Below, in pieces: positions 5,341 through 31,132 of a DNA stretch of 64,000 nt. Source of the stretch: Patescibacteria group bacterium. Its GTDB lineage: Bacteria; Patescibacteriota; UBA1384; XYA2-FULL-43-10. A program made the translations under genes and the position numbers. Under the pieces are notes generated by a model. The model ran no database searches. It was not told where the DNA came from and worked only from the letters and a program-made list of their open reading frames with translations. Within the stretch, counting starts at the first letter, position 1; the number at the start of each line of letters is the position of its first letter. The stretch is from contig JBAYVT010000002.1 of the NCBI GenBank assembly GCA_041674405.1, positions 23,158 through 87,157 of the forward strand, written 5' to 3'.

Positions 5341-5730
5341 CTAATTCCGCAAGAAAAAACCACGGCAATTCTCACTACCGCAATTGCATGGCATCTTTTC
5401 TCCGCCCTGTTCTGTTTTATTGTAATCACAAGTAATTTCATCACCGGTGGAAATTGGTTTTAAGGCATTTAGACAAACTTCATCTCCAAGAATCAGTTCC
5501 GCTTTCGGATCGCAAGAATGGTTCATATAGTTCAAAATTTCCGGATCGTCTACAAATTTATTTTTACCAATTTTTGCGTATCCAGACTTTGGTTTCGAAT
5601 GAATATTATCCATCGGCACATCATAAAATTTTTTTCCAGCAGCAATATTCTCTGTCGCAAAAATTCCAATGCCATGGATTTTACTTTGAGCTTTTTTCAT
5701 CGATAAGCCGTTCTGTATATCCTGAATCAA
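5341..5730 (-). CDS. SET-domain protein (putative protein lysine methyltransferase) with post-SET CxCxxxxC
   Basis: HGIGIFATENI, NHSCDPKAEL (NHSCxPN motif), GDEITCDY, C-terminal CNCGSENC. The start could instead be the internal M at about 5700. Confidence 0.75.
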   Translation of the reverse strand: MIQDIQNGLSMKKAQSKIHGIGIFATENIAAGKKFYDVPMDNIHSKPKSGYAKIGKNKFVDDPEILNYMNHSCDPKAELILGDEVCLNALKPISTGDEITCDYNKTEQGGEKMPCNCGSENCRGFFLRN

Positions 5731-6331
5731 TTAATTCGCGAAAAGCTTTCAGGACCTTGTTGGGTACATCCTGATAAATCTGAAAACCCATTTTGGGATA
5801 TTCGATTATCCTCTGCAAATCACCAACCATAATATTTATGAGATAATCTTGCGGATAATTTTCGTCAGCATAATCAATAAAGTCAATTTTGGGCGAAGTT
5901 ACCACAAATTCCTTTCCAGGCCATTGCTTTGCAAATGTAGCGTAAGTTCTACGTTCCATATAAGGCTTCTGAACAATGATGAATGAATCAATCTTCAAAT
6001 TCTTTTTGTCCAATAATTTCCGAGTGAACTGAATATTCTCGCCAGTGTTGGTAGATTTGTTTTCGATAATAATCTTGTCTTTCGAAACTCCCATGCCAAT
6101 AGCGATGTCGGCAAAAATTTCTGCTTCAGATTTTTCAAAAGACCGCACGCCGTGACTACCTGAGAATATTAGCAAAGGAGCATATTTATCAAGAAACAGA
6201 TCGGCGGCTCTTTTGGCTACACGTTTGTCATGAGACCCCAAAGCCAAAATAGCGTCAGCTTTTTTAAGCTTCTGATTCATCAACATGTAATCCCAAATTA
6301 TTTGGGCATTCTCGATAATTTCTGCAGGCAT
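5681..6331 (-). CDS. DUF218/YdcF (ElyC/SanA-like) family protein
   Basis: ENKSTNTGENIQFTRKLL core motif. ALGSHDKR near the N-terminus. Confidence 0.6.
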   Translation of the reverse strand: MPAEIIENAQIIWDYMLMNQKLKKADAILALGSHDKRVAKRAADLFLDKYAPLLIFSGSHGVRSFEKSEAEIFADIAIGMGVSKDKIIIENKSTNTGENIQFTRKLLDKKNLKIDSFIIVQKPYMERRTYATFAKQWPGKEFVVTSPKIDFIDYADENYPQDYLINIMVGDLQRIIEYPKMGFQIYQDVPNKVLKAFRELIDSGYTERLIDEKSSK

Positions 6332-18556: not shown

Positions 18557-19570
18557 TTAATAAATCTCGACAACCATGCGTGGATTTTCAGCTACTTGCG
18601 CCTCAAGCTCCGATTTGGGCAACAACCCCCCTTGTGCTCCAATTATTCTGACAACGGAAGTAGAATTTACTATACCTGCTTTGAGTGCTTCAGATATCTT
18701 GTATTGATCGGAAAAATCCGCGTCTTTTGAATCTAAAAATTTCGCAACAAAAGCTGATGCAAAACTATCACCCGCTCCAGTCGCATCCACTCTTTCTCGA
18801 TTCATTGCTTCGATTCGATATGACCGAACCCCATCAAATGCGTAAGCGCCTTCTTTTCCATCGGTTACGATAATTATTCTTGGCCCAAGAGCATGAAGCG
18901 ATTTGGCAATTTCTTCAACCCGCGGCCGCACAGGATAATTGGAAAATTTTATTGCTTCTTCACGATTCAAAATCAATATCGAAACACATTTTAATAATGC
19001 CCTGTATTTCGAAACACCCTTTTCGATTTGCAAAGAACCAGGATTCCATGCAATTTTTGTTCCCTTCTCAGAAGCCATAGATATTAGATCCTTTTCAACT
19101 TCTTCGGTGTTTTCCCCCATCGGGCAAACAAAAAACCATTTAGTTTTTAAATTTTTTTTAGGCTTCAGCACTGAGTAATCTGAAACCCCGTGGCAAACAA
19201 AAATTGTTCTTTCGTCCCCAAGATTAAAAATGATTGAAAAATTTGTTTGGACATCATGTTTTTTAATGACCTGCGCTTCGTCTACACCCTCAATCCTAAG
19301 CCTTTCCAGTATTTTTTCAGAAGGAGAATCGTCTCCAATAGCAGTAATAATTGCAGTGTTATATCCAAGGCGATTGAACGAAACAGCAGTGTTGCATGCT
19401 GAACCGCCAATATCATAAAATGCATGTTCTAAAGAAATTTTTTCCCCCAGTTCAAAAGAAACAGATTTGCCCGAGGCATATCTCCGGCTGCTTTCAATAT
19501 CAAAAGTATGAGGCTTAACAAAAATATCCTCTGAAGCATCCCCAATTGTGACAATATCATACTTTGTCAT
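18557..19570 (-). CDS. PfkB-family carbohydrate kinase
   Basis: DATGAGDSFASAFVAKF (PfkB signature 2). Sits next to fba and pgk. Confidence 0.75.
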   Translation of the reverse strand: MTKYDIVTIGDASEDIFVKPHTFDIESSRRYASGKSVSFELGEKISLEHAFYDIGGSACNTAVSFNRLGYNTAIITAIGDDSPSEKILERLRIEGVDEAQVIKKHDVQTNFSIIFNLGDERTIFVCHGVSDYSVLKPKKNLKTKWFFVCPMGENTEEVEKDLISMASEKGTKIAWNPGSLQIEKGVSKYRALLKCVSILILNREEAIKFSNYPVRPRVEEIAKSLHALGPRIIIVTDGKEGAYAFDGVRSYRIEAMNRERVDATGAGDSFASAFVAKFLDSKDADFSDQYKISEALKAGIVNSTSVVRIIGAQGGLLPKSELEAQVAENPRMVVEIY

Positions 19571-20412
19571 ACTTTTGCTTTATTTCTTGAACCAAATAAT
19601 GTTATGTAATCACAGACTAATTTTTCAATATCAGCCTTCACTTCATTGAAGACATCTCTTGGATCATCGCTGATATCGATATTCTTTGAGGCGCTGGACA
19701 AGAACGCCTTGCGTATTTTGGTATCAATATTAAATTTGACCGCACCCGCTGCTATAGCAGCTTTTATGTCCTTCTGTGAAAGGCCCGATGCACCATGGAT
19801 CACAATTGGAACAGAACTAGCATGGGCGATTTTTGACAAAAGTGAAATATCTAACTTTTCACCCCTCGGTGCACCATGTTCATTGCCTACAGAAACTGCT
19901 AATGAAGTAATCCCGGTTCGATTAATAAAATCACTAGCTAAATCAGGATGGGTATATGAACTTTTGTTCGATAATTCTCCACCCTCTTCGCGCGAAATTA
20001 CACCCAGTTCCGCTTCCACATCTACATCAAATTCTTTCGCATACGAAACAACTTTTTTAGTTAAAGCGATATTTGATTCATATGGCAGTTTTGAAGCATC
20101 AATCATTACAGAATTATATCCGATATCGATGCACTCCTTGACTATTCCAAAATCACGCGCATGATCAAGGTGAATTGCGGCAAAAACATCTTGGCTGTCC
20201 AGTTCGCTTTTTATTATTCCAAATAGTTCAGGAAGCCCGGCATAATCGATTGCGCTTGGCGTAGTCTGAATAATTACTGGTGAATTCATTTTTTTTGCAG
20301 CAGCTACGACTACTTGTACTGTTTCGAGATTATATACATTAAAAGCACCTATGGCATAGCCATCGTTTTTGGCTCCTTGATATGCTTCTTTGAGATTTAA
20401 TAATGGCATCAA
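19567..20412 (-). CDS. fba: class II fructose/tagatose-bisphosphate aldolase
   Basis: LDHARDF and IHGASG motifs. Confidence 0.85.
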   Translation of the reverse strand: MMPLLNLKEAYQGAKNDGYAIGAFNVYNLETVQVVVAAAKKMNSPVIIQTTPSAIDYAGLPELFGIIKSELDSQDVFAAIHLDHARDFGIVKECIDIGYNSVMIDASKLPYESNIALTKKVVSYAKEFDVDVEAELGVISREEGGELSNKSSYTHPDLASDFINRTGITSLAVSVGNEHGAPRGEKLDISLLSKIAHASSVPIVIHGASGLSQKDIKAAIAAGAVKFNIDTKIRKAFLSSASKNIDISDDPRDVFNEVKADIEKLVCDYITLFGSRNKAKV

Positions 20413-21566
20413 ATTACGCTTGTCTTGATATTGCTCACAAATTTATTGTTGTCAAGTGCAATCAAGCCCGGCATCTTTTCACCAGCAAGGTATGAAAGAG
20501 TTGCACCACCGCCTGTTGAAATGAAATTAATATCGCCACGAAGATTGTTTGCATCGATAAACCCAACCGTATCTCCGCCCGCAACAATGGTAGTCCCTTT
20601 GTTTTTGGAAATTGCCTCTGCAATTCTCCTTGTTCCAGTCTCATATCGTTCGTCTTCCGAGTGTCCCAGATTTCCGTTCCAGAACGTCGTAGCAGCAGTC
20701 GCTATTTCAGCCTCAAATTTAGCAATTGTTTCCGGGCCGATATCCATGATTTTGAAACGGCCACCATCAGAATTTTCCCTAGCCTGATCTACCGGTAAAA
20801 CAATTTTATCTTGATATCTCGATAGAATATCCTCACAGGTTTCAAACATTTCCCTTTCATATAATGAATCACTTACGTCTTGGCCAGACGCCGCAAGAAA
20901 AGTATTGGCAATAGCCCCTCCAATTAAAATTTTGTCCGCTTGTCCTGCCAGATTATTTATCAAAGCGGCTTTATCCTTGACTTTTGCTCCGCCCAAAACA
21001 ATCTTATAAGGCTTTTGTGGATTTTGTATCAAAATATCAAGAGTTGTTTTCTCAGACTCAATCAGAAATCCGGCATAGCTTGGAAGATAATTGGTAATCG
21101 CATCTACTGAAGCATGGGCCCTATGGCTTACCCCGAAAGCATCATTAACATAAATATCTGCGTAGCTTGCAAGTTCTTCCCCAAATCTTTCATTGTTGGC
21201 TTCTTCTTCTCTGTGCCATCGCAGATTGCCCAACATAAAAATATCACCAAAAGTCATCTCTGATATTTTTTTGGCGACCAAGGGGTGAATTATGTGATCT
21301 GTCGCATACACTTTCCGTTTTAATAGCTTTGCAAGCTCAGAGGCGAGCGGGATGGTAGAAAGTTCTGGAATAATTTCTCCAGCCGGCTTTCCCAGATGAG
21401 TGGCAATGATAATCTTAGTCCTTCTTTCAAGTAAATACTGGAGAGTTGAAAGAGATTCAACAATTCTATTGTTATCTAAAATCTTACCGTCTTTAATCGG
21501 TACATTATAATCGACGCGAACAAAAATCCGCTTTCCACTAACGTTTGCATCCCTAACGCTAACCAT
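20409..21566 (-). CDS. pgk: phosphoglycerate kinase
   Basis: N-terminus KRIFVRVDYNVP. Typical PGK hinge and C-domain motifs. Confidence 0.9.
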   Translation of the reverse strand: MVSVRDANVSGKRIFVRVDYNVPIKDGKILDNNRIVESLSTLQYLLERRTKIIIATHLGKPAGEIIPELSTIPLASELAKLLKRKVYATDHIIHPLVAKKISEMTFGDIFMLGNLRWHREEEANNERFGEELASYADIYVNDAFGVSHRAHASVDAITNYLPSYAGFLIESEKTTLDILIQNPQKPYKIVLGGAKVKDKAALINNLAGQADKILIGGAIANTFLAASGQDVSDSLYEREMFETCEDILSRYQDKIVLPVDQARENSDGGRFKIMDIGPETIAKFEAEIATAATTFWNGNLGHSEDERYETGTRRIAEAISKNKGTTIVAGGDTVGFIDANNLRGDINFISTGGGATLSYLAGEKMPGLIALDNNKFVSNIKTSVI

Positions 21567-21727: not shown

Positions 21728-22660
21728 TTGCCTTACAGGCTTAAAGATCATCATTTAAACCATATATTTAGCATAATAAATAAGTATTATGAAATTTATG
21801 GCGTTTCCAAAAAAAGCAAAAAATTTTCTAGAATTGAAATTGCATCAGATTTAATCTGGATAAACGGCAGATCACAAATGCCACCCAAAAAAGTCTTGTT
21901 TGAAGACCAACAGATAATTTCGGAAGATCTCAATAAAAAGATTGCTTTCGTTGGCATGCCCCTGTGTGATGTCTCGGCCATCCATCATTTAATTTACAAA
22001 TTAAGAGATTCTGGATTAGTACCGGATCGAGATGATCTGTTGCTGATTGCATCTGAATGTAAGCCAGACGATGCTTGTTTTTGTGAATTTTTCGGTACTG
22101 ATAAGCGATCAGGTTTTGATATTTATATTCAAAAAAATAGCAGTGGGTACGATGCATTCTCAGGGACAGCTGCTGGAGAAAAAATTTTAAAAAAATTAGC
22201 GCTAATGCCTGATCACAAATTAAACCTGCGCCCAGTTACCCATAAGTCCCTAAACAAATTGTCCAAGGAAGAAATAACAAAACTGATTGAAAAACGCGGC
22301 CAATTTGATGACTTATGGAACAAGATTGCAAATAACTGCTTTGGTTGTGGCGCCTGCACAGCTGTTTGCCCGCTTTGTTATTGTTTTAGACAAGAAGAGA
22401 AAAATAATTTAGATGGCAGCTGCAAATCTTGCATAAATTGGGATTCTTGCTTTGCAAAAGAATTTTCCGAAGTACAAAATAGAGCTGATTTACGGCCTCA
22501 AAATGTTGACCGGCTATATAATTGGTATCATCACAAATTTGTCCGCTCCCCTTATCTTTGCGTCGGATGTGGACGATGTATCAAGGCTTGCCCTGCAAAT
22601 TTAAATATTAAAAATATTCTTTTATCAATTGAAAAGTTAGGCGAAAAAAGTGATGAATAG
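21728..22660 (+). CDS. hydB: [NiFe] hydrogenase (group 3b-like) beta subunit, Fe-S protein
   Basis: CFGCGACTAVCPLCYC and CVGCGRCIKACP clusters. TTG start with GGAGGGG SD. Confidence 0.7.
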   Translation: MPYRLKDHHLNHIFSIINKYYEIYGVSKKSKKFSRIEIASDLIWINGRSQMPPKKVLFEDQQIISEDLNKKIAFVGMPLCDVSAIHHLIYKLRDSGLVPDRDDLLLIASECKPDDACFCEFFGTDKRSGFDIYIQKNSSGYDAFSGTAAGEKILKKLALMPDHKLNLRPVTHKSLNKLSKEEITKLIEKRGQFDDLWNKIANNCFGCGACTAVCPLCYCFRQEEKNNLDGSCKSCINWDSCFAKEFSEVQNRADLRPQNVDRLYNWYHHKFVRSPYLCVGCGRCIKACPANLNIKNILLSIEKLGEKSDE

Positions 22661-23450
22661 CCCTTTTTCATATCGTGAATATAAAATTACTAACAAAACT
22701 GAAGTTGCTCCAGATACATTTCTGTTTCGACTTAGAGGAAAATTGAAATTTGATCCAGGGCAATTTGTCCAGGTAAAATTTCCCCATATCGGAGAAGTGA
22801 CTCTGGTTCCCTGCTCTAAAAAAGATGAAAAAACATATTTTGAACTTTGCGTTCGCAGAGCCGGAAATACGACCGAAAAAATATCTGAAAAGGTACCGGG
22901 TGATTCGATGTTTGTTCGAGGGCCATATGGGCACGGATGGCCAATCGGCAAAACATTGGAAAAAGATATTTTGCTGATTTCCGGCGGCATCGGAATCATC
23001 CCGCTTATGCCGCTTATGGATGAACTGGTGAAATATCGAGGTAATTTTGGGAAAATCTACTTTCTCGCCGGATTTAAAACTCCGCACCACGTCATGTTTG
23101 AACAGGATCTTTTGCGTTACAAAAAGAAAATAAGCTATTTCAAGGTTGCGGTCGAAAAAACCGACAGAGATTGGTGGGGTGAAAATTGTATGATCACCGA
23201 CTTGATTAAAAACACAAATCTGAGTCCAAATATCAATGTATTTCTATGTGGTCCGGAAATTATGTTTCGCCCCTGCGTCGATGTTCTATTACAAAAAAAA
23301 ATTAATCCGAAAAATATTTACGTTTCTTTCGAGCGAAGAATGGAATGCGGGATCGGTTTTTGCCAACATTGTACTATAGGCAAGTATAAAGTTTGTGAGG
23401 ATGGCCCCATATTTACCTGGAGCAAAATAGCACCGGAGTTAGAAAAATGA
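22650..23450 (+). CDS. hydG: hydrogenase gamma subunit (FAD/NAD-binding, C-terminal [2Fe-2S])
   Basis: Ferredoxin-reductase-like fold motifs. C-terminal CGIGFCQHCTIGKYKVC. Confidence 0.7.
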   Translation: MMNSPFSYREYKITNKTEVAPDTFLFRLRGKLKFDPGQFVQVKFPHIGEVTLVPCSKKDEKTYFELCVRRAGNTTEKISEKVPGDSMFVRGPYGHGWPIGKTLEKDILLISGGIGIIPLMPLMDELVKYRGNFGKIYFLAGFKTPHHVMFEQDLLRYKKKISYFKVAVEKTDRDWWGENCMITDLIKNTNLSPNINVFLCGPEIMFRPCVDVLLQKKINPKNIYVSFERRMECGIGFCQHCTIGKYKVCEDGPIFTWSKIAPELEK

Positions 23451-24178
23451 ATGCAATATTCCCCAAAAAAACACTAGGAATTTTTTCTCTCACTTGTTGC
23501 GAAGGTTGCCAATTTTCGCTGTTAAAGGACTTTGTTGGTTTTGAAAAAATCACAAGATTTTATGAAATAAAAAGTTTTCGCCTCGGGCAAGAAGAAAATG
23601 ACGAATGCTTTTTTGATGTTTCGCTTGTTGAGGGAACACCCGAGTCAACTCGGGAACTTGAGCATTTGAAAAAGATAAGAAAAGTATCGAAAGCAGTTGT
23701 TTCAATTGGCGCTTGTGCACATTTAGGCGGTATTCAATCAGAGCGAAATCGCTTACCTAAAAAATACATCGGAAAAGAAAAAGTTAAAAAAATTAGTGAC
23801 ATAATAAAAGTAGATTTGGTTATTCCTGGCTGCCCGATTTCCCACAAGGAGGCAGTGGCCGCCCTTCTTGACACATATTGGGGCAAAAAATTTCGGCCGA
23901 AGGATTATGCCGTATGTTTCGAATGTAGAAAAAATGAAAATGAATGCTTGATAAAAAATGGCAGACCCTGCCTGGGCCCGATCACCCGGGGAGGATGTGA
24001 TAGTGTTTGTATAAATGGTGGAGAATTGTGTCTTGGGTGCCGCGGTGCGTTAGATCAAACGAATTTTAATAAAATTAAAGAAATACTAAACCCGATGATC
24101 GGAGAAGACAAAACGAATAATCTCCTTACCATATATGGAGACCTGGAACAAGAATGGAAAGATCAGGACAGACAATGA
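23447..24178 (+). CDS. hydD: [NiFe] hydrogenase small (delta) subunit
   Basis: LTCCEGCQFS, VSIGACAHLGGIQ and IPGCPISH cysteine motifs. Confidence 0.8.
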   Translation: MNAIFPKKTLGIFSLTCCEGCQFSLLKDFVGFEKITRFYEIKSFRLGQEENDECFFDVSLVEGTPESTRELEHLKKIRKVSKAVVSIGACAHLGGIQSERNRLPKKYIGKEKVKKISDIIKVDLVIPGCPISHKEAVAALLDTYWGKKFRPKDYAVCFECRKNENECLIKNGRPCLGPITRGGCDSVCINGGELCLGCRGALDQTNFNKIKEILNPMIGEDKTNNLLTIYGDLEQEWKDQDRQ

Positions 24179-25092
24179 AATTTGAAGAATTAAAGAAAAT
24201 ACTAGCAAGTAAAATAGAATTTAAAGATTTTGACGACCCTGATGTCGTAAAAATTAATGCCGGTATAGTAAGTAATCATAAATATAAAATTAAAAGCCAC
24301 AATTCGAGTTTTTTTGTAAAAGAGATCAAAGACAACGAGGCAAATATTCTCAAAATATTAGATATGATTGATCTAGATTTCTATCCCAAAATCTTATATC
24401 TTGATCTACTCGATAAAAATATCCTCGTCTCCGAATTTATTGAGGGTGACGCACTGCAATCTTGGGAGATTCAGGACAATCTTCTGCTAGGTTTTACCCA
24501 AATGCAAAATTTGATGAATAATATTAGTTTCCTCAAAGAAAAAGAAATATTTGGTATTTCGAATTTTAGCGAAACTGATGGTGGTTTTTTCCGAAATCAA
24601 ATAACAGAAAATTTTTTATATGGATTGGAAACACTTGATGACTTGTCAAAAACTAATTTGCCAATCGTAAAAAAACACTTCGAGTTGGTATCTTTTTTGA
24701 AGAAAGATAAGCAAAAAATATTTGATGATTTTTCAAACATGCCGTTTGCGAGGCAACATCACGATTTCAAGCAGGACAACATCATTGGAAATCCACAAAA
24801 ATTGGTTGATTGGGGATCTTCTTATGGATATGGGCCATTTTTGTTTGATCTTGCTCCTTTTTTGTTAAACAATAAAAACCAATTAGAACTATACAAATCA
24901 AAATCAGATGTCTGCAAGGGCTTTACAGACCGCCAGATAAATCGCTGGCTTTATGTCGCCGCTGTAGCAAGATATATGGAAGATTTGAGATATAGAATTA
25001 GCGATAATGGATGGAATTCGTCTAAAGAAAAATGCGAACGCTTTCTTGAGAGCGAGTATGATAATTATCAGTCATTGCTTGATAAAATATAG
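24175..25092 (+). CDS. protein-kinase-like fold (APH/ChoK/CotS-type) phosphotransferase embedded in the hydrogenase operon
   Basis: HHDFKQDNII (HxDxxxxN) and LVDWGSS (DxG) motifs. ATGA overlap with the hydD stop. Confidence 0.5.
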   Translation: MKFEELKKILASKIEFKDFDDPDVVKINAGIVSNHKYKIKSHNSSFFVKEIKDNEANILKILDMIDLDFYPKILYLDLLDKNILVSEFIEGDALQSWEIQDNLLLGFTQMQNLMNNISFLKEKEIFGISNFSETDGGFFRNQITENFLYGLETLDDLSKTNLPIVKKHFELVSFLKKDKQKIFDDFSNMPFARQHHDFKQDNIIGNPQKLVDWGSSYGYGPFLFDLAPFLLNNKNQLELYKSKSDVCKGFTDRQINRWLYVAAVARYMEDLRYRISDNGWNSSKEKCERFLESEYDNYQSLLDKI

Positions 25093-25114
25093 CTAAAATT
25101 TCAGGAGATAGATC

Positions 25115-26362
25115 ATGAGTTCATCAGTTCCCAAAATTGAAGGACACGCTACTTTTTACGCCCATCTTCGTGCCGGAAAAGTTGACAAGGCCAGAATTAT
25201 TGGCCTTGATGGAGATCGGTTTGTTGAAAAAATATTATTCGGGCGCAGCTATATGGAAGTACCAGTAATTACCTCTCGCATCTGTGGTATATGCCCCGTA
25301 ATTCACAATGTTACCTCAACCAAAGCTGTGGAAAATGCTCTCGATATCAAGGTTTCCGAACAAGTAGAAACACTGCGGAAACTAATGCTCTGTGGCCAGA
25401 TGGTTCAGAGCCACTCGCTTCATCTATACCTTCTGGTTCTTCCCGATTTCATGGGAATGTCTTCCTCTTTCGAGCTTCAAAAAAAGCACCCGGATATTTT
25501 TGCCGATGCAGTTGCCCTAAAATCATATGCCGATAGTATTATTGAGATAATCGGAGGCAGGGCAGTTCATCCGGTTTCGAACGTACCTGGCGGTTTCAAA
25601 AAATTTCCGGAAATTTCTGAATTACGGAAATTACTGGAAGAAAGTAAAAAGATGACCGATCTTGGGATTAAAACATTAAAGCTTTTTCAGTCATTTAATT
25701 ATCCTGAAATTTCCCGCAAGATAATTTACTCGGCGTTGTCTGACCTGAATGAATATGCTTTCTATGGCGGAGAAATCAAGACCACGAGCGGTGAGAATTT
25801 TAAAGCAAAAGATTATAAAAAATATATTTACGAAGAAATTCTGCCATATAATCGTGCGAAATTTGGAACGCTCAAGGGCAAAGAAATGATGGTTGGCGCA
25901 ATTGCCCGGATTAATCTCAACAAGAAACAATTGGAAAAAGAAATTGGAAGTTTGAAGGAACTTGGTGTAGGTGAAGAGCTGTCCGATAATCCATTCGGTA
26001 ACATAATTGCCCAAGCAATTGAAAACTATTATTTTATCGTAAAATCAGAAGCGATAATTGAAAAATTAATTAAAGAGGGTATTTCCGAAGAGTCAATAGT
26101 TGAACCAAAAAAAATTGATGAAGGAGTTGCTGCTTGCGAAGCACCGCGTGGAACGCTGTTTCACTACTACAAATTTGACAAAGAAGGTATGCTTGAAAAG
26201 TGTGATATTGTTACGCCAACCGTACAAAATCTGCCAGCATTGGAATATGACATGAAAAAACTCGGCCCCTTTCTCAAGGACTTGGACGAAACAGAGAGAA
26301 CAGAAATGATTGAGATGCTTATTCGTTCATATGACCCATGCATCACTTGCGCCACACATTAA
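25115..26362 (+). CDS. hydA: [NiFe] hydrogenase large (alpha) subunit
   Basis: N-terminal RICGICPVIH. C-terminal DPCITCATH, ending exactly at the His. Confidence 0.9.
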   Translation: MSSSVPKIEGHATFYAHLRAGKVDKARIIGLDGDRFVEKILFGRSYMEVPVITSRICGICPVIHNVTSTKAVENALDIKVSEQVETLRKLMLCGQMVQSHSLHLYLLVLPDFMGMSSSFELQKKHPDIFADAVALKSYADSIIEIIGGRAVHPVSNVPGGFKKFPEISELRKLLEESKKMTDLGIKTLKLFQSFNYPEISRKIIYSALSDLNEYAFYGGEIKTTSGENFKAKDYKKYIYEEILPYNRAKFGTLKGKEMMVGAIARINLNKKQLEKEIGSLKELGVGEELSDNPFGNIIAQAIENYYFIVKSEAIIEKLIKEGISEESIVEPKKIDEGVAACEAPRGTLFHYYKFDKEGMLEKCDIVTPTVQNLPALEYDMKKLGPFLKDLDETERTEMIEMLIRSYDPCITCATH

Positions 26363-26468: not shown

Positions 26469-27350
26469 ATGAATGCAATCATTGAAATCAAAAAACTGAC
26501 AAAATATTATGGCAAAACCCTCGGGATTAAAAGCCTTGATTTGGATGTAATTGAAGGAGAAATATTTGGTTTTATCGGGCCAAATGGCGCTGGCAAATCT
26601 ACAACGATCAGGCTTTTGCTAGATTTAATTCGGCCAACAGCGGGAAGTGCAAAAATTTTTGGCAAAGATATCCACCGCCATAGTGTGGAGCTTAAACAAG
26701 ATATCGGCTATTTGCCAGGAGAAATATTTTTGCCGGAAAATCTCACCGGTAAAAGCTGTATTAATTATTTTAAATCCTTCAAGGAAACAATTGATGACAG
26801 ATATCTTAAAGATTTAAAATCTCGTTTTGAATTTGATGATAAGAAAAAGATTTCCCAGTATTCCAAAGGCAATAAGCAAAAATTAGCAATAATTTTAGCC
26901 CTGATGCACAAGCCGAAACTCCTAATTCTAGACGAACCGACAAGCGGGCTCGACCCCTTAAACCAGCAAGAATTTTACAAGGTTATCACCGAAACAAAGG
27001 AGTGGAGAACAACAACTTTTTTCTCAACTCATATTTTGGATGAGGCTGAATTTCTTTGCGATCGAGTCGGAATCATTAAGGATGGCCGTCTGCTCCAGAT
27101 TGAAGACATCGACAAATTTAAAGAAAAAAATATTCGTGAAATAAATCTGGAAACCACCGCAGATATTCCTCTTTCGGCCTTGAAAATTGATGGCGTCGAA
27201 AAGACGGAAAAAACTGATCATGGCTATCGCCTAATCACCAAGGGCCATAACGGCGAATTGATAAAAATCATTTCGAAATTTGCAATCGATGACATTAAAA
27301 TATCCGAACCATCGCTTGAAGAAATATTTATGCATTTTTACGAAAAATAA
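26469..27350 (+). CDS. ABC transporter ATP-binding protein
   Basis: Walker A GPNGAGKST. Signature YSKGNKQKL. Walker B LLILDEPTSGLD. Confidence 0.85.
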   Translation: MNAIIEIKKLTKYYGKTLGIKSLDLDVIEGEIFGFIGPNGAGKSTTIRLLLDLIRPTAGSAKIFGKDIHRHSVELKQDIGYLPGEIFLPENLTGKSCINYFKSFKETIDDRYLKDLKSRFEFDDKKKISQYSKGNKQKLAIILALMHKPKLLILDEPTSGLDPLNQQEFYKVITETKEWRTTTFFSTHILDEAEFLCDRVGIIKDGRLLQIEDIDKFKEKNIREINLETTADIPLSALKIDGVEKTEKTDHGYRLITKGHNGELIKIISKFAIDDIKISEPSLEEIFMHFYEK

Positions 27351-27447
27351 CTAATAGCTAGAAACTAAAATGTAAAATCTAAGGATGGGTCGTTAAATAA
27401 TTGTTTTGATAAAATATGGTTTTAAGTTTTAACATTTAAGTTATTAC

Positions 27448-28251
27448 ATGGATAATATGATCGCAATAATGTACAGAAAATTTATTGACCAAGCGATTTC
27501 ACTTCTATATTATTTTGGCGGCCTACTCGCCTACTCCTGGATGATGATCGCCATGTTTCCAACAATGAAGACGGCAGATCTGGCCGGTATTTACAACCAA
27601 TTTCCCAAAGAATTTCTAAAGTTTTTTGGCGCCAACGGGATTGAAAGCATGGGAACGGTAGAAGGTTTTTTATCTATAGAATTTCTTTCGCTGTTTTTTA
27701 TACTAATTATCGCTTTTTATATCGGCTCGTCCGCCGGATCAACCATAGCTGGCGCAATCGAAAAAAGGACAATGGATTTTCAGCTATCACAGCCAATTTC
27801 TCGGGCTAAGCTTTTACTCAGTGAGACAATCGTCGGGCTCCTCAACACTGCACTTTTGGTATTTGCCACTTCAGGCAGTATCTATATTCTTGCAAAGGCA
27901 TACGATGTTTCAATGAGCACTCGGGGAATCTTCGTTTTTGCTTTTGTGGCGATAATATTCTTATGGGCATTTTACGGGTTAGCAGTTTTGATTTCTTCCA
28001 TCTTGCGCAGCAAAATCACCGTTGCCTCGATAACGGTATCTATTATCATGGGCTTGTATATATTGAATGCTCTTTCGAAAATCGTGGATAAACTGGCAAA
28101 GATCGAAAAATACACATTGTTTAATATGTATAATCCACAAAAACTTTTGACCGATCACATCATAAACTGGCACCAGATCGAATTCTTGCTTTTAGTTCTT
28201 GTGGTTGGAATAATTAGTTCAATATTGATATTTAATAATAAAGATATCTAG
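27448..28251 (+). CDS. ABC-2 type transporter permease
   Basis: 6 TM segments. Follows the ATPase gene. Confidence 0.55.
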   Translation: MDNMIAIMYRKFIDQAISLLYYFGGLLAYSWMMIAMFPTMKTADLAGIYNQFPKEFLKFFGANGIESMGTVEGFLSIEFLSLFFILIIAFYIGSSAGSTIAGAIEKRTMDFQLSQPISRAKLLLSETIVGLLNTALLVFATSGSIYILAKAYDVSMSTRGIFVFAFVAIIFLWAFYGLAVLISSILRSKITVASITVSIIMGLYILNALSKIVDKLAKIEKYTLFNMYNPQKLLTDHIINWHQIEFLLLVLVVGIISSILIFNNKDI

Positions 28252-28305: not shown

Positions 28306-29094
28306 TTATGGTTTCCTAGAAACGAAAACTAATCCGATCGGGTAGGTTTTTGGAAACTTAGGTTGTTTTTCAAGAAGTTCGGCGGTTACTTCCGGCTCTA
28401 ACATTTTTTCAACCACAAACCCCGCTTTAATCAAAGAATTAAAATAATCAGAAATCGGCCGTTGATAATGTTCAATCTCGTAAACCTTTTGGTATTTTTG
28501 AGCAACATCAACATCCCGAATCTTACTGTTGTCCATTGTAAATTTCGAGTATCCCCTACTAAAATACCCTTTCGATCCCCGAATGGTCCTCTCTTTCCCG
28601 TCGGCTTGTCCCCGCAAATAGGTAACGAGATCCCATACAGGGTGAGTGATTGCAAACAAAAACCGTCCTCCGTTTTTCAAGGTTTTAAAAGCCTGGGACG
28701 TAACAAAGTCAATCTCTTCGAGTTCGTTCAGCAAGAAACCTGAAAAAATTACATCTACGGAATTCGGTTTTATTTTCCAGGGTTTGGTAACATCTTGTTC
28801 AATAAATTCGGCTATATTGGTCTGAACTCTTTTTCTCGCAAAATCCAAATTATGGGGAGATATGTCGATTAGAATTAGTCGATCTGGGTTCTGACCCTCA
28901 ATTTGCGAACTGAAATAACCGTTGCCGCACCCCAAATCAACCACCGTCTTCCCGTTTAACGTTCCAATCTCAGATAATAATTGCGGGTTGAGCACATATT
29001 GTTTGTAGACCCCGCCATTATCTCCGGTCGCTTCGTTCCAAAAACTCGCAAATTCAGGATCTAAATATGCAGAAATCGCATTATTCTGTGTCAT
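28306..29094 (-). CDS. class I SAM-dependent methyltransferase
   Basis: VVDLGCGNGYFS motif I. Confidence 0.7.
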   Translation of the reverse strand: MTQNNAISAYLDPEFASFWNEATGDNGGVYKQYVLNPQLLSEIGTLNGKTVVDLGCGNGYFSSQIEGQNPDRLILIDISPHNLDFARKRVQTNIAEFIEQDVTKPWKIKPNSVDVIFSGFLLNELEEIDFVTSQAFKTLKNGGRFLFAITHPVWDLVTYLRGQADGKERTIRGSKGYFSRGYSKFTMDNSKIRDVDVAQKYQKVYEIEHYQRPISDYFNSLIKAGFVVEKMLEPEVTAELLEKQPKFPKTYPIGLVFVSRKP

Positions 29095-29370: not shown

Positions 29371-30369
29371 TTATTTTGAATTTGTTACCCGCTCCACCAT
29401 ATCCACAAGCCTCTCTGAGTATCCCCACTCGTTGTCATACCAGGCAATTATTTTAACAAGATCTCCACCGATCACGCATGTTAATGGTAGGTCGACTATC
29501 GATGAATATGGATTTTGTTTAAGGTCGCTTGATACCAGCGGCTCTTCTGAAACCTGAATTATTCCTTTGTGGCTGCCATCTGCAGCCTTTTTAAGTGCTT
29601 CATTAATATCATCGACTGAAACTTTTTTGGAAAGAACCGCAACGATATCAGAGAGCGAAACCACCGGGGATGGAACACGGATCGATAAGCCGTCAAATTT
29701 ATTCTTAAGCTTGGGTATTGTCAAAGTCGCTGCTATTGCCGCACCTGTCGTAGTCGGAACAATATTTTGGGCTGCAGCGCGAGCCCGGCGCAGGTCTTTA
29801 TGCGGACCGTCAACCAAATTTTGGTCAGCCGTATAGGAATGAATCGTTGTCATCATTGATTTTTCAACGCCAAATTCATCCTCAATCACCTTCATCACCG
29901 GCGCGATACAATTGGTTGTACAGGAAGCATTTGAGACAATACTCTCGTCATCGTATTTATCAGCATTAGCGCCGATCACGAAAGTCGGAACCGAATCATC
30001 CTTTGCCGGCGCGGACAAAACAACTTTTTTGGCGCCGGCTTCCAAATGGGCTTTTGCCAAATCATTAGTCAAAAATATACCGGTCGACTCGATGACAACA
30101 TCGATATCAAGTACTTTCCATGGCAAAGCTCCCGGATTTTTCTCCGAAAGGTAATGGATTTTCTTGTTATTGACGATAATCTCATTATCAGAAAAGCCAA
30201 CTTCCCGGTCGTAAATACCGTAGCATGTGTCGTATTTTAAAAGATGGGCTTGGGTTTCTGCCGGGCACAGGTCATTTAAAGCGACAAGCTCAACATTCGG
30301 CCGGTCCAAAATTATCTTCGCCGCCGCCCGGCCGATCCGTCCAAAGCCATTAATTGCTACTCGCAGCAT
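29371..30369 (-). CDS. gap: glyceraldehyde-3-phosphate dehydrogenase
   Basis: MLRVAINGFGRIGR and SNASCTTNCIAP. Start set at the internal Met so the gene does not overlap tpiA. Confidence 0.9.
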   Translation of the reverse strand: MLRVAINGFGRIGRAAAKIILDRPNVELVALNDLCPAETQAHLLKYDTCYGIYDREVGFSDNEIIVNNKKIHYLSEKNPGALPWKVLDIDVVIESTGIFLTNDLAKAHLEAGAKKVVLSAPAKDDSVPTFVIGANADKYDDESIVSNASCTTNCIAPVMKVIEDEFGVEKSMMTTIHSYTADQNLVDGPHKDLRRARAAAQNIVPTTTGAAIAATLTIPKLKNKFDGLSIRVPSPVVSLSDIVAVLSKKVSVDDINEALKKAADGSHKGIIQVSEEPLVSSDLKQNPYSSIVDLPLTCVIGGDLVKIIAWYDNEWGYSERLVDMVERVTNSK

Positions 30370-31132
30370 CCACCTCCTTCGGGATAACAACGTCACCTTT
30401 AAAACTTTTATTTGCTGCCCAAATGCGGCAGATTTCGACAAATACACTTGCTCTAAGGCTGGCACTGCCAACCAAGACTCCATCAATCAACGGCGATTTA
30501 GCAAAATTTAATATTTTTTCATGGTCTATGCTGCCACCATACAAAATTGGGCTTTCTCGGAATATCACTTCGCGAAGTTTGGCCACTGCTTTTTCTGCAT
30601 GTTCGACCGGTGCGGCATTGTGATTGCCAATTGCCCATACGGGCTCGTAAGCCACAACAATATCCTTGTATTTGTTTTTTGGAACATGAGTCAAGGCCTC
30701 TTCAAGCTGGTCGGCAGCATCGGACAGGGGGGCGCTTTTCGTTTTCTCGCCAACACAAATGATTGGAGACAATCCGTGTTTTAAGGCTGCTAACACTTTT
30801 TCATTAACATCAAAATCTGTCTCGCCAAAATGAGCCCGGCGTTCCGAATGTCCGACAATTACGTATTTGCAAACATCGCGAATCATAATCGGCGAGATTT
30901 CACCGGTGTAAGGACCCTCATCTTCATAAAACATATTTTGGGCCCCTAGGTTAACCTTTCCGTCTCTTTTCAAAATTTCTGATAGTTCAGAAAGCCAGAT
31001 CACTGGCGGGCAGACCACGACCTCGACTCCATCAAGACTGGCAACAGAGTTTCTGATTGAGGTCGCTAAAATATACGCATCAGATGCCCGCGTATACATC
31101 TTCCAGTTCGCAACAACCATCGGCCGTCTCAT
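30350..31132 (-). CDS. tpiA: triosephosphate isomerase
   Basis: VVANWKM and AYEPVWAIG motifs. Confidence 0.9.
   Translation of the reverse strand: MRRPMVVANWKMYTRASDAYILATSIRNSVASLDGVEVVVCPPVIWLSELSEILKRDGKVNLGAQNMFYEDEGPYTGEISPIMIRDVCKYVIVGHSERRAHFGETDFDVNEKVLAALKHGLSPIICVGEKTKSAPLSDAADQLEEALTHVPKNKYKDIVVAYEPVWAIGNHNAAPVEHAEKAVAKLREVIFRESPILYGGSIDHEKILNFAKSPLIDGVLVGSASLRASVFVEICRIWAANKSFKGDVVIPKEVDAASSN

Follow-up and report, generated by a model that had tools for sequence, protein, structure and literature searches.

We analysed a 64,000-nucleotide (nt) stretch of a Patescibacteria group bacterium genome (contig JBAYVT010000002.1, positions 23,158 to 87,157; hereafter the window) in which a five-gene cluster on the plus strand encodes HydB, HydG, HydD, a kinase and HydA, in that order. 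Four of these genes specify the beta, gamma, delta and alpha subunits of a group 3b [NiFe] hydrogenase, and the fourth in line, the subject of this report, is an open reading frame (ORF) of the aminoglycoside phosphotransferase/choline kinase (APH/ChoK) family. The assignments of the four subunits by profile searches are listed together with the other features of the locus in Table 1. The HydG gene overlaps HydB with its start and HydD with its end, and the RICGICPVIH and DPCITCATH motifs of HydA are intact in the translation.

Table 1. Coordinates of the hydrogenase operon, of the kinase gene and its motifs in the window, and of genes inserted at subunit junctions in related operons (designated by locus).
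Feature	Position	Strand	Description
HydB/ShyB-like iron-sulfur (beta) subunit	21728..22660	+	first gene of the operon; Pfam Fer4_22, E 3e-20; NCBIfam sulfhyd_ShyB, HydB best
HydG/ShyC-like FAD/NAD(P)-binding (gamma) subunit	22650..23450	+	Pfam FAD_binding_6, NAD_binding_1, DHODB_Fe-S_bind; NCBIfam AsrB, HydG, ShyC
HydD/ShyD-like [NiFe] hydrogenase small (delta) subunit	23447..24178	+	Pfam Oxidored_q6, E 4e-21; NCBIfam sulfhyd_ShyD, E 4e-45
ATGA stop/start overlap	24175..24178	+	kinase ATG 24175-24177 on HydD TGA 24176-24178; read CAATGA
APH/ChoK-family kinase ORF (eukaryotic-like-kinase fold)	24175..25092	+	305 aa; intact; between the HydD and HydA genes
Lys49 codon (FFVKE)	24319..24321	+	invariant column in family alignment A1; N-lobe strand 44-50 of the model
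Catalytic loop HHDFKQDNII, HxDxxxxN motif (H195, D197, N202)	24757..24786	+	residues 195-204; read from the sequence
LVDWGSS, D212 as DxG metal-binding aspartate	24802..24822	+	residues 210-216; read from the sequence
Kinase-HydA spacer	25093..25114	+	22 nt; Shine-Dalgarno AGGAG at 25103-25107, 7 nt before the HydA ATG
HydA/ShyA-like [NiFe] hydrogenase large (alpha) subunit	25115..26362	+	Pfam NiFeSe_Hases, E 3e-39; NCBIfam sulfhyd_ShyA, E 7e-84
Insert at HydB/HydG junction	L015:3845-4474		209-aa hexapeptide-repeat protein
Insert at HydD/HydA junction	L016:5535-5957		PDDEXK_3 protein (PF13366)
Insert at HydD/HydA junction	L019:5341-5914		GIY-YIG protein and 76-aa orphan
Insert at HydG/HydD junction	L020:2082-2441		orphan
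Insert at HydG/HydD junction	L021:4856-5239		PF05635 '23S rRNA intervening sequence' protein
Insert at HydG/HydD junction	L022:902-1315		PF05635 '23S rRNA intervening sequence' protein
Insert at HydG/HydD junction	L024:4440-4811		PF05635 '23S rRNA intervening sequence' protein

The kinase ORF is a real gene: it has 61 database homologs, an ortholog at the same position in a second lineage (locus L011) and a confident AlphaFold2 model. A further in-frame ATG lies upstream at 24154; its use would yield a protein of 312 aa, and the NCBI record of the protein (MFA7243975.1, 'hypothetical protein', Patescibacteria group bacterium) begins there. Both the family alignment and the L011 gene favour the start at 24175 (MKFEELKK). 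In an alignment of 51 sequences, residues K49, E55, H195, D197 and D212 are invariant and W213 and G214 are kept in at least 90% of the family members, while at position 202 the Asn of the window kinase gives way to Q, H or S in some relatives. K49 falls within strand 44-50 and E55 within helix 53-65 of the model. By analogy with APH enzymes and protein kinases, Lys49 would be the ATP-phosphate-binding lysine of strand beta3 and, judging from the fold and the invariant residues, would position the ATP phosphates together with Glu55; Asp197 of the HHDFKQDN loop would act as the catalytic base on the substrate hydroxyl, and Asn202 and Asp212 (VDWG) would bind Mg2+. Because the five residues named above are invariant across all 51 sequences, the kinase is predicted to be active.

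Comparison with profile libraries placed the window protein at the margin of its family. The Pfam APH profile (PF01636) aligned with residues 189-230 only, at 21.1 bits (E 3e-4) and thus short of the gathering threshold of 23.2 bits, whereas 42 of the 51 family members matched it at E <= 0.01 (best E 2e-12); going by sequence, the family overall can be recognised as APH and the window member is borderline. The window kinase matched no NCBIfam model, resistance-enzyme models included, and it belongs to no curated resistance family. Among the relatives, weak NCBIfam matches were to APH(3') in one of the 51 (E 0.005) and otherwise to thiamine kinase and the guanitoxin kinase GntI. A part in anti-phage defence was also considered and rejected, none of the 51 family members matching a PADLOC defence-system model.

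The link to solved structures came from fold comparison alone. The AlphaFold2 model (mean pLDDT 92.7, pTM 0.90) shows a bilobal, protein-kinase-like fold with the large helical C-terminal substrate lobe typical of APH/ChoK enzymes. In a Foldseek search of the PDB the top 50 matches, at probability 1.00, comprise choline, aminoglycoside, corramycin, hexosamine and similar kinases as well as APH-family proteins that have no assigned substrate (YtaA, CcrZ). Structural-match scores were 17.7 for corramycin phosphotransferase, 16.6 for 5-methylthioribose kinase, 16.5 for APH(9)-Ia, 16.1 for aminopropanol kinase and 12-16 for choline, homoserine, glucosamine, macrolide, hexosamine and other kinases, against 9 or less for true protein kinases (Rio, Bud32, PKR), with sequence identities to the small-molecule kinases of only 9-19%. 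The predicted fold and the motifs assign the protein to the APH/choline-kinase superfamily with its catalytic motifs intact. As substrate, the likeliest candidates are a scavenged metabolite and a toxic xenobiotic or antibiotic. The best structural matches hint at a resistance-type role, as do GNAT, MFS and ABC neighbours at some homolog loci, but salvage kinases score nearly as high. An earlier note on this DNA, made from the sequence alone, had described an ORF of about 305 aa between the small- and large-subunit genes, read the two motifs HHDFKQDNII and LVDWGSS in it and proposed an APH/ChoK-type kinase; the length, the HydD and HydA flanks and both motifs are as it described, and the model, Foldseek, the structural comparison and the APH matches of the family agree on the fold. 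The Pfam assignment that it suggested as a check succeeds for most of the relatives and narrowly fails for the window protein itself.

The distribution of the gene was followed in related hydrogenase operons. A HydA scan with one genome per species returned 16 loci, 13 from the Candidate Phyla Radiation (CPR) and three more distant ones. In the 13 CPR loci HydA is 59-65% identical to that of the window and the order HydB-G-D-A is kept; most of them also share a wider synteny, with phosphoglycerate kinase (PGK) on the opposite strand, HydB-G-D-A, an ABC ATPase and ABC-2 permease, and HypC on the opposite strand. None of the 13 syntenic operons carries the kinase, nor do the three more distant loci. 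The kinase sits inside a hydrogenase operon only in the window and in L011/L012, the L011 kinase being 72% identical to that of the window and the flanking subunits 66-79%. Literature searches turned up no report of a kinase in a [NiFe] hydrogenase operon either, and none is mentioned by Jaffe et al. (2020; PMC7304191), who describe the beta and gamma genes of CPR hyd1 as sometimes 'not immediately upstream' of the small subunit without offering an explanation.

The kinase is not the only gene to have entered such an operon. In seven of the 13 syntenic operons a different gene has been inserted between subunit genes, in every case in the orientation of the operon (Table 1), and the L021 and L022 inserts, which occupy the same junction, are 49% identical. 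Small foreign genes thus seem to have landed repeatedly in the CPR 3b hydrogenase operon. Two irregularities were seen in the same set of loci. In L024, 450 nt between HydD and HydA (5551-6001) contain no ORF of at least 50 aa and carry GC-rich hairpins right after the HydD stop; the stretch could have a regulatory function, encode a small RNA or be what is left of a decayed insert. In L025 (2138-2273), HydA has about 135 extra nt between the protein body and the C-terminal DPCxxCxxH motif, which could reflect an in-frame insertion, a frameshift or an assembly problem.

The junction between HydD and the kinase has a counterpart in operons that lack the insert. Uninterrupted relatives join the HydD stop to the HydA start in the same manner (CAATGA in L017, ATGA in L028, TAATG in L025), and L011 has TAATG at its overlap. 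Since uninterrupted HydD/HydA junctions show the same overlap, the coupling of HydD to the kinase belongs to the site and was inherited by the insert, and it therefore says nothing about co-function of kinase and hydrogenase. The overlap lies at 24173-24178 in the window, at about 5999-6004 in L017 and at about 5990-5995 in L028; that the CAATGA in the window now begins the kinase gives the appearance of an insert that landed just after the ancestral HydA start codon. On the far side of the kinase, the 22-nt spacer with its AGGAG before HydA is also found in L011, and a spacer of this kind is missing in most uninterrupted relatives. Promoter-like sites that could serve the kinase alone occur in the number expected by chance, and no convincing plus-strand terminator flanks the ORF. 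The kinase would lack both a promoter and a terminator of its own and be transcribed by read-through from an operon promoter upstream of HydB. Its translation would begin by re-initiation where the HydD stop and the HydA start ancestrally overlapped, and HydA would now be served by its own AGGAG ribosome-binding site in the spacer. Of what the earlier note had said about the setting, the ATGA overlap with the HydD stop and the view that a kinase is no standard component of [NiFe] hydrogenase operons are both borne out. Its suggestion of co-translation with the structural subunits is retained as far as the kinase is positioned for coupling to HydD; the implied role alongside the subunits is not, the overlap being native to the site. 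It had also named absence from related hydrogenase loci as an observation that would speak against a functional linkage, and this is largely what we find, with a single sister lineage as the exception.

The kinase is functional and kept under strong purifying selection. Between the window and L011 its rate of nonsynonymous substitution (dN) is 0.185, compared with 0.15-0.24 for the four hydrogenase genes. The synonymous rate (dS) is saturated, so that the dN/dS of about 0.07 (NG86) is to be read as that value or lower. Because of this strong purifying selection we regard the kinase as a retained, useful passenger and not as junk. The insertion therefore took place before the window and L011 lineages split and after their separation from the 59-65% relatives, and has since been kept by selection. 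The GC content of the ORF, 32.4%, is the second lowest of the 56 ORFs in the window (z = -2.3). Neither mobility genes nor convincing direct or inverted repeats were found flanking the ORF. One candidate for a mobile-cassette repeat, a 31-nt match of 71% between the 3' end of HydD and the 5' end of the kinase gene, was taken as chance because it is AT-rich and because the kinase N-terminus is native to the family.

The subfamily to which the kinase belongs is small and sharply delimited. Searched in full with HMMER and the family profile, 1.84 billion cluster representatives yielded 75 proteins at E <= 0.001, 52 of them at E <= 1e-30, with almost no tail. Named homologs come from metagenome-assembled genomes of Nanoarchaeota, Woesearchaeota and Hodarchaeota, and one homolog contig, which carries Arf/Ras/Roc-type small GTPases, is read as Asgard-like; the subfamily is thus seen in Patescibacteria, DPANN and Asgard-type contigs. 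The genomic context of the homologs was surveyed in 37 metagenome loci and for eight further proteins that were looked up, four of them more distant members; about 30 of all these loci are distinct and long enough to hold a neighbour. Within the DNA retrieved for these (51 fetched), none of HydB, HydG, HydD and HydA lies beside a homolog outside the window/L011 clade. The nearest relatives, P0003-P0006, form the sister clade of the window kinase in a neighbour-joining tree (51-54% identity) and are all located outside hydrogenase loci: P0003 is near a NAGPA-domain protein and a methyltransferase, P0006 near an AIR-synthase-like protein, P0005 adjoins a bacterial-type glutamate racemase and P0004 is preceded by a second APH-like ORF. 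The latter, an overlapping 258-aa ORF with a faint APH match directly before P0004 (L069:132-908), makes a tandem kinase pair. Archaeal named homologs suggested direct transfer from archaea, a possibility we rejected: a member of the sister clade (P0005) stands beside a gene of bacterial type, so the donor is not assignable.

No recurring neighbour gene was found among the homologs, whose surroundings include an AAA_33 kinase, enolase, GNAT, MFS and ABC exporter proteins, a sulfatase, an FAD oxidoreductase and a PEP-utilising enzyme. A partnership with an S-adenosylmethionine (SAM) methyltransferase came into consideration through methyltransferases that adjoin homologs in L003/L031 and L047 and lie near one in L013. 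These are only 25-29% identical to one another over a generic SAM-binding core, and we therefore do not accept a specific partnership. The window itself encodes a 262-aa class I SAM methyltransferase on the minus strand (28306-29094) that overlaps the hypC start about 3 kb from the kinase; it resembles those beside the homologs only generically, at the same 25-29% identity, and with no counterpart in the 13 syntenic loci it is a second lineage-specific addition to the neighbourhood. A hexapeptide-repeat protein (LbH_EIF2B/GMPPB_C-type) is located just upstream of the homolog P0016 (L007:5328-5759), and the hexapeptide insert at the HydB/HydG junction of L015 (3845-4474) shares a Pfam profile with it, possibly by coincidence.

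Taken together, these observations make it probable that the kinase is an active small-molecule enzyme which was inserted at the HydD/HydA junction of one narrow Patescibacteria lineage and has been retained there as a passenger for its own enzymatic function. Its absence from syntenic operons, the scattered contexts of its homologs, the insert-prone nature of the operon and the inherited coupling all argue against a link between kinase and hydrogenase, and a functional connection is not supported. The kinase would thus ride on operon expression and be selected for its own activity, not as a hydrogenase subunit, regulator or maturation factor. Among the possibilities raised in the earlier note, a selfish insertion fits best and a regulatory or maturation accessory does not, with the qualification that purifying selection places on the word selfish.

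Several points weigh against this interpretation. The same slot and the coupling to HydD have been kept across a divergence that saturates synonymous sites, and a lineage-specific functional link would look alike. That the kinase is unrelated to H2 metabolism rests on its distribution, not on chemistry, and the arrangement is seen in only two lineages, a small sample. The identification of the enzyme is also not secured by sequence in every respect: its score falls slightly under the Pfam APH gathering threshold, and no PDB chain matched it at E <= 10 when searched as a single protein, nor did the 51-sequence profile find a kinase there. Finally, the third-codon-position GC content of the gene is no outlier (z about -1), and being unremarkable it leaves the compositional evidence for a foreign origin weak.

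A more specific version of the passenger interpretation holds that the enzyme is an antibiotic or toxin resistance kinase, an analogue of APH, Mph or corramycin phosphotransferase that was acquired horizontally and parked in a constitutive operon. The low GC content of the ORF is in keeping with such an origin, as is the occurrence of GNAT acetyltransferases, MFS and ABC transporters and SAM methyltransferases beside homologs at several loci. However, the neighbourhoods of the homologs are inconsistent, the window kinase matches no NCBIfam resistance model, and what weak matches the relatives give are, apart from the single APH(3') hit, to thiamine kinase and GntI; we consider this version possible but hold it with reserve.

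The main rival takes the kinase for a lineage-specific accessory of the hydrogenase, made in step with it, that modulates the enzyme or phosphorylates some small molecule involved in fermentation or in balancing NAD(P)H/H2 redox. The surroundings of the operon lend this idea some appeal. It lies within a glycolysis cluster, with a PfkB-family kinase, fructose-bisphosphate (FBP) aldolase and PGK at 18557-21566 (minus strand) and glyceraldehyde-3-phosphate dehydrogenase (GAPDH) and triosephosphate isomerase (TIM) at 29371-31132 (minus strand), a setting that fits a role of the hydrogenase in re-oxidising fermentative NAD(P)H and would suit a sugar or metabolite kinase; the fold does include sugar kinases (N-acetylhexosamine kinase, glucosamine kinase, maltokinase). 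Also close by, HydA is followed by a gene pair for an ABC ATPase and an ABC-2 permease (26469-28251, plus strand), with equivalents in L015-L017, L019, L020, L024 and L029; most syntenic CPR loci thus conserve this association with the hydrogenase, and hypC lies further on in the opposite orientation. Yet all 13 syntenic operons have the same glycolytic flanks and lack the kinase, no other surveyed member of the family adjoins hydrogenase genes, the same junctions in relatives house plainly unrelated genes, the coupling motif came with the site, and the literature searches turned up no precedent. What keeps the accessory role alive is only the conserved position, with its translational coupling, in two lineages across a deep split at 72% identity and under strong purifying selection, and we judge it improbable. 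Less probable still is the stronger proposal that this lineage has recruited the kinase into the 3b hydrogenase module as a true fifth member, made in a fixed ratio with the small subunit and tuning NAD(P)H-linked fermentative H2 production through the phosphorylation of a metabolite or cofactor; if true, it would be the first [NiFe] hydrogenase system to depend on a kinase. A pseudokinase or protein kinase acting as a structural or regulatory partner on HydD or HydA, for which a shared mRNA and the coupling to HydD might be cited, is very hard to reconcile with catalytic residues that are intact and invariant, which excludes a pseudokinase, and with a C-terminal lobe that is large and helical, as APH and ChoK enzymes typically have.

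Understood as a retained passenger, the kinase by itself matters little: it adds another uncharacterised enzyme of APH type, whose location is unusual but can be explained. The broader lesson is cautionary: in reduced CPR genomes, operon position and an overlapping stop and start are unreliable evidence of shared function, given that the coupling signal belongs to the site and that about half of the related operons hold unrelated inserts at equivalent junctions. The repeated use of the CPR 3b hydrogenase operon as a landing site by small foreign genes may merit the attention of specialists, and the substrate of a kinase subfamily common to Patescibacteria, DPANN and Asgard-type organisms could show what these organisms scavenge or detoxify.

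The locus can be set against three kinds of known system. With the hydBGDA/shyBCDA operon of Pyrococcus furiosus and the group 3b 'hyd1' operons of CPR bacteria, the operon in the window shares the four genes, the beta-gamma-delta-alpha order, intact metal-binding motifs and a nearby hypC; unlike the P. furiosus-type operon and the 13 syntenic CPR operons, it contains a fifth, unrelated gene that parts delta from alpha. The inserts in its relatives (PF05635, PF13366, GIY-YIG and hexapeptide proteins) resemble the kinase in occupying inter-subunit junctions of the same operon, in being lineage-specific and in having no link to hydrogen metabolism. They are, however, short (90-210 aa), and several are nuclease-like or element-associated, whereas the kinase is a full-size enzyme of metabolic type with no mobility-related features. 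Solved examples of the PF01636 APH/choline-kinase enzymes include corramycin phosphotransferase (8agy), APH(9)-Ia (3i0o), 5-methylthioribose kinase (2pyw and 2olc), aminopropanol kinase (6ef6) and the choline kinase LicA (4r77). Like these enzymes, the window kinase is a stand-alone, single-domain protein of about 300 aa with an HxDxxxxN loop and a DxG aspartate, and its conserved Lys/Glu pair in the N-lobe may correspond to theirs; it differs from the solved members in being only 10-19% identical to any of them, in having no sequence-level match in the PDB and in belonging to a small subfamily with sharp limits.

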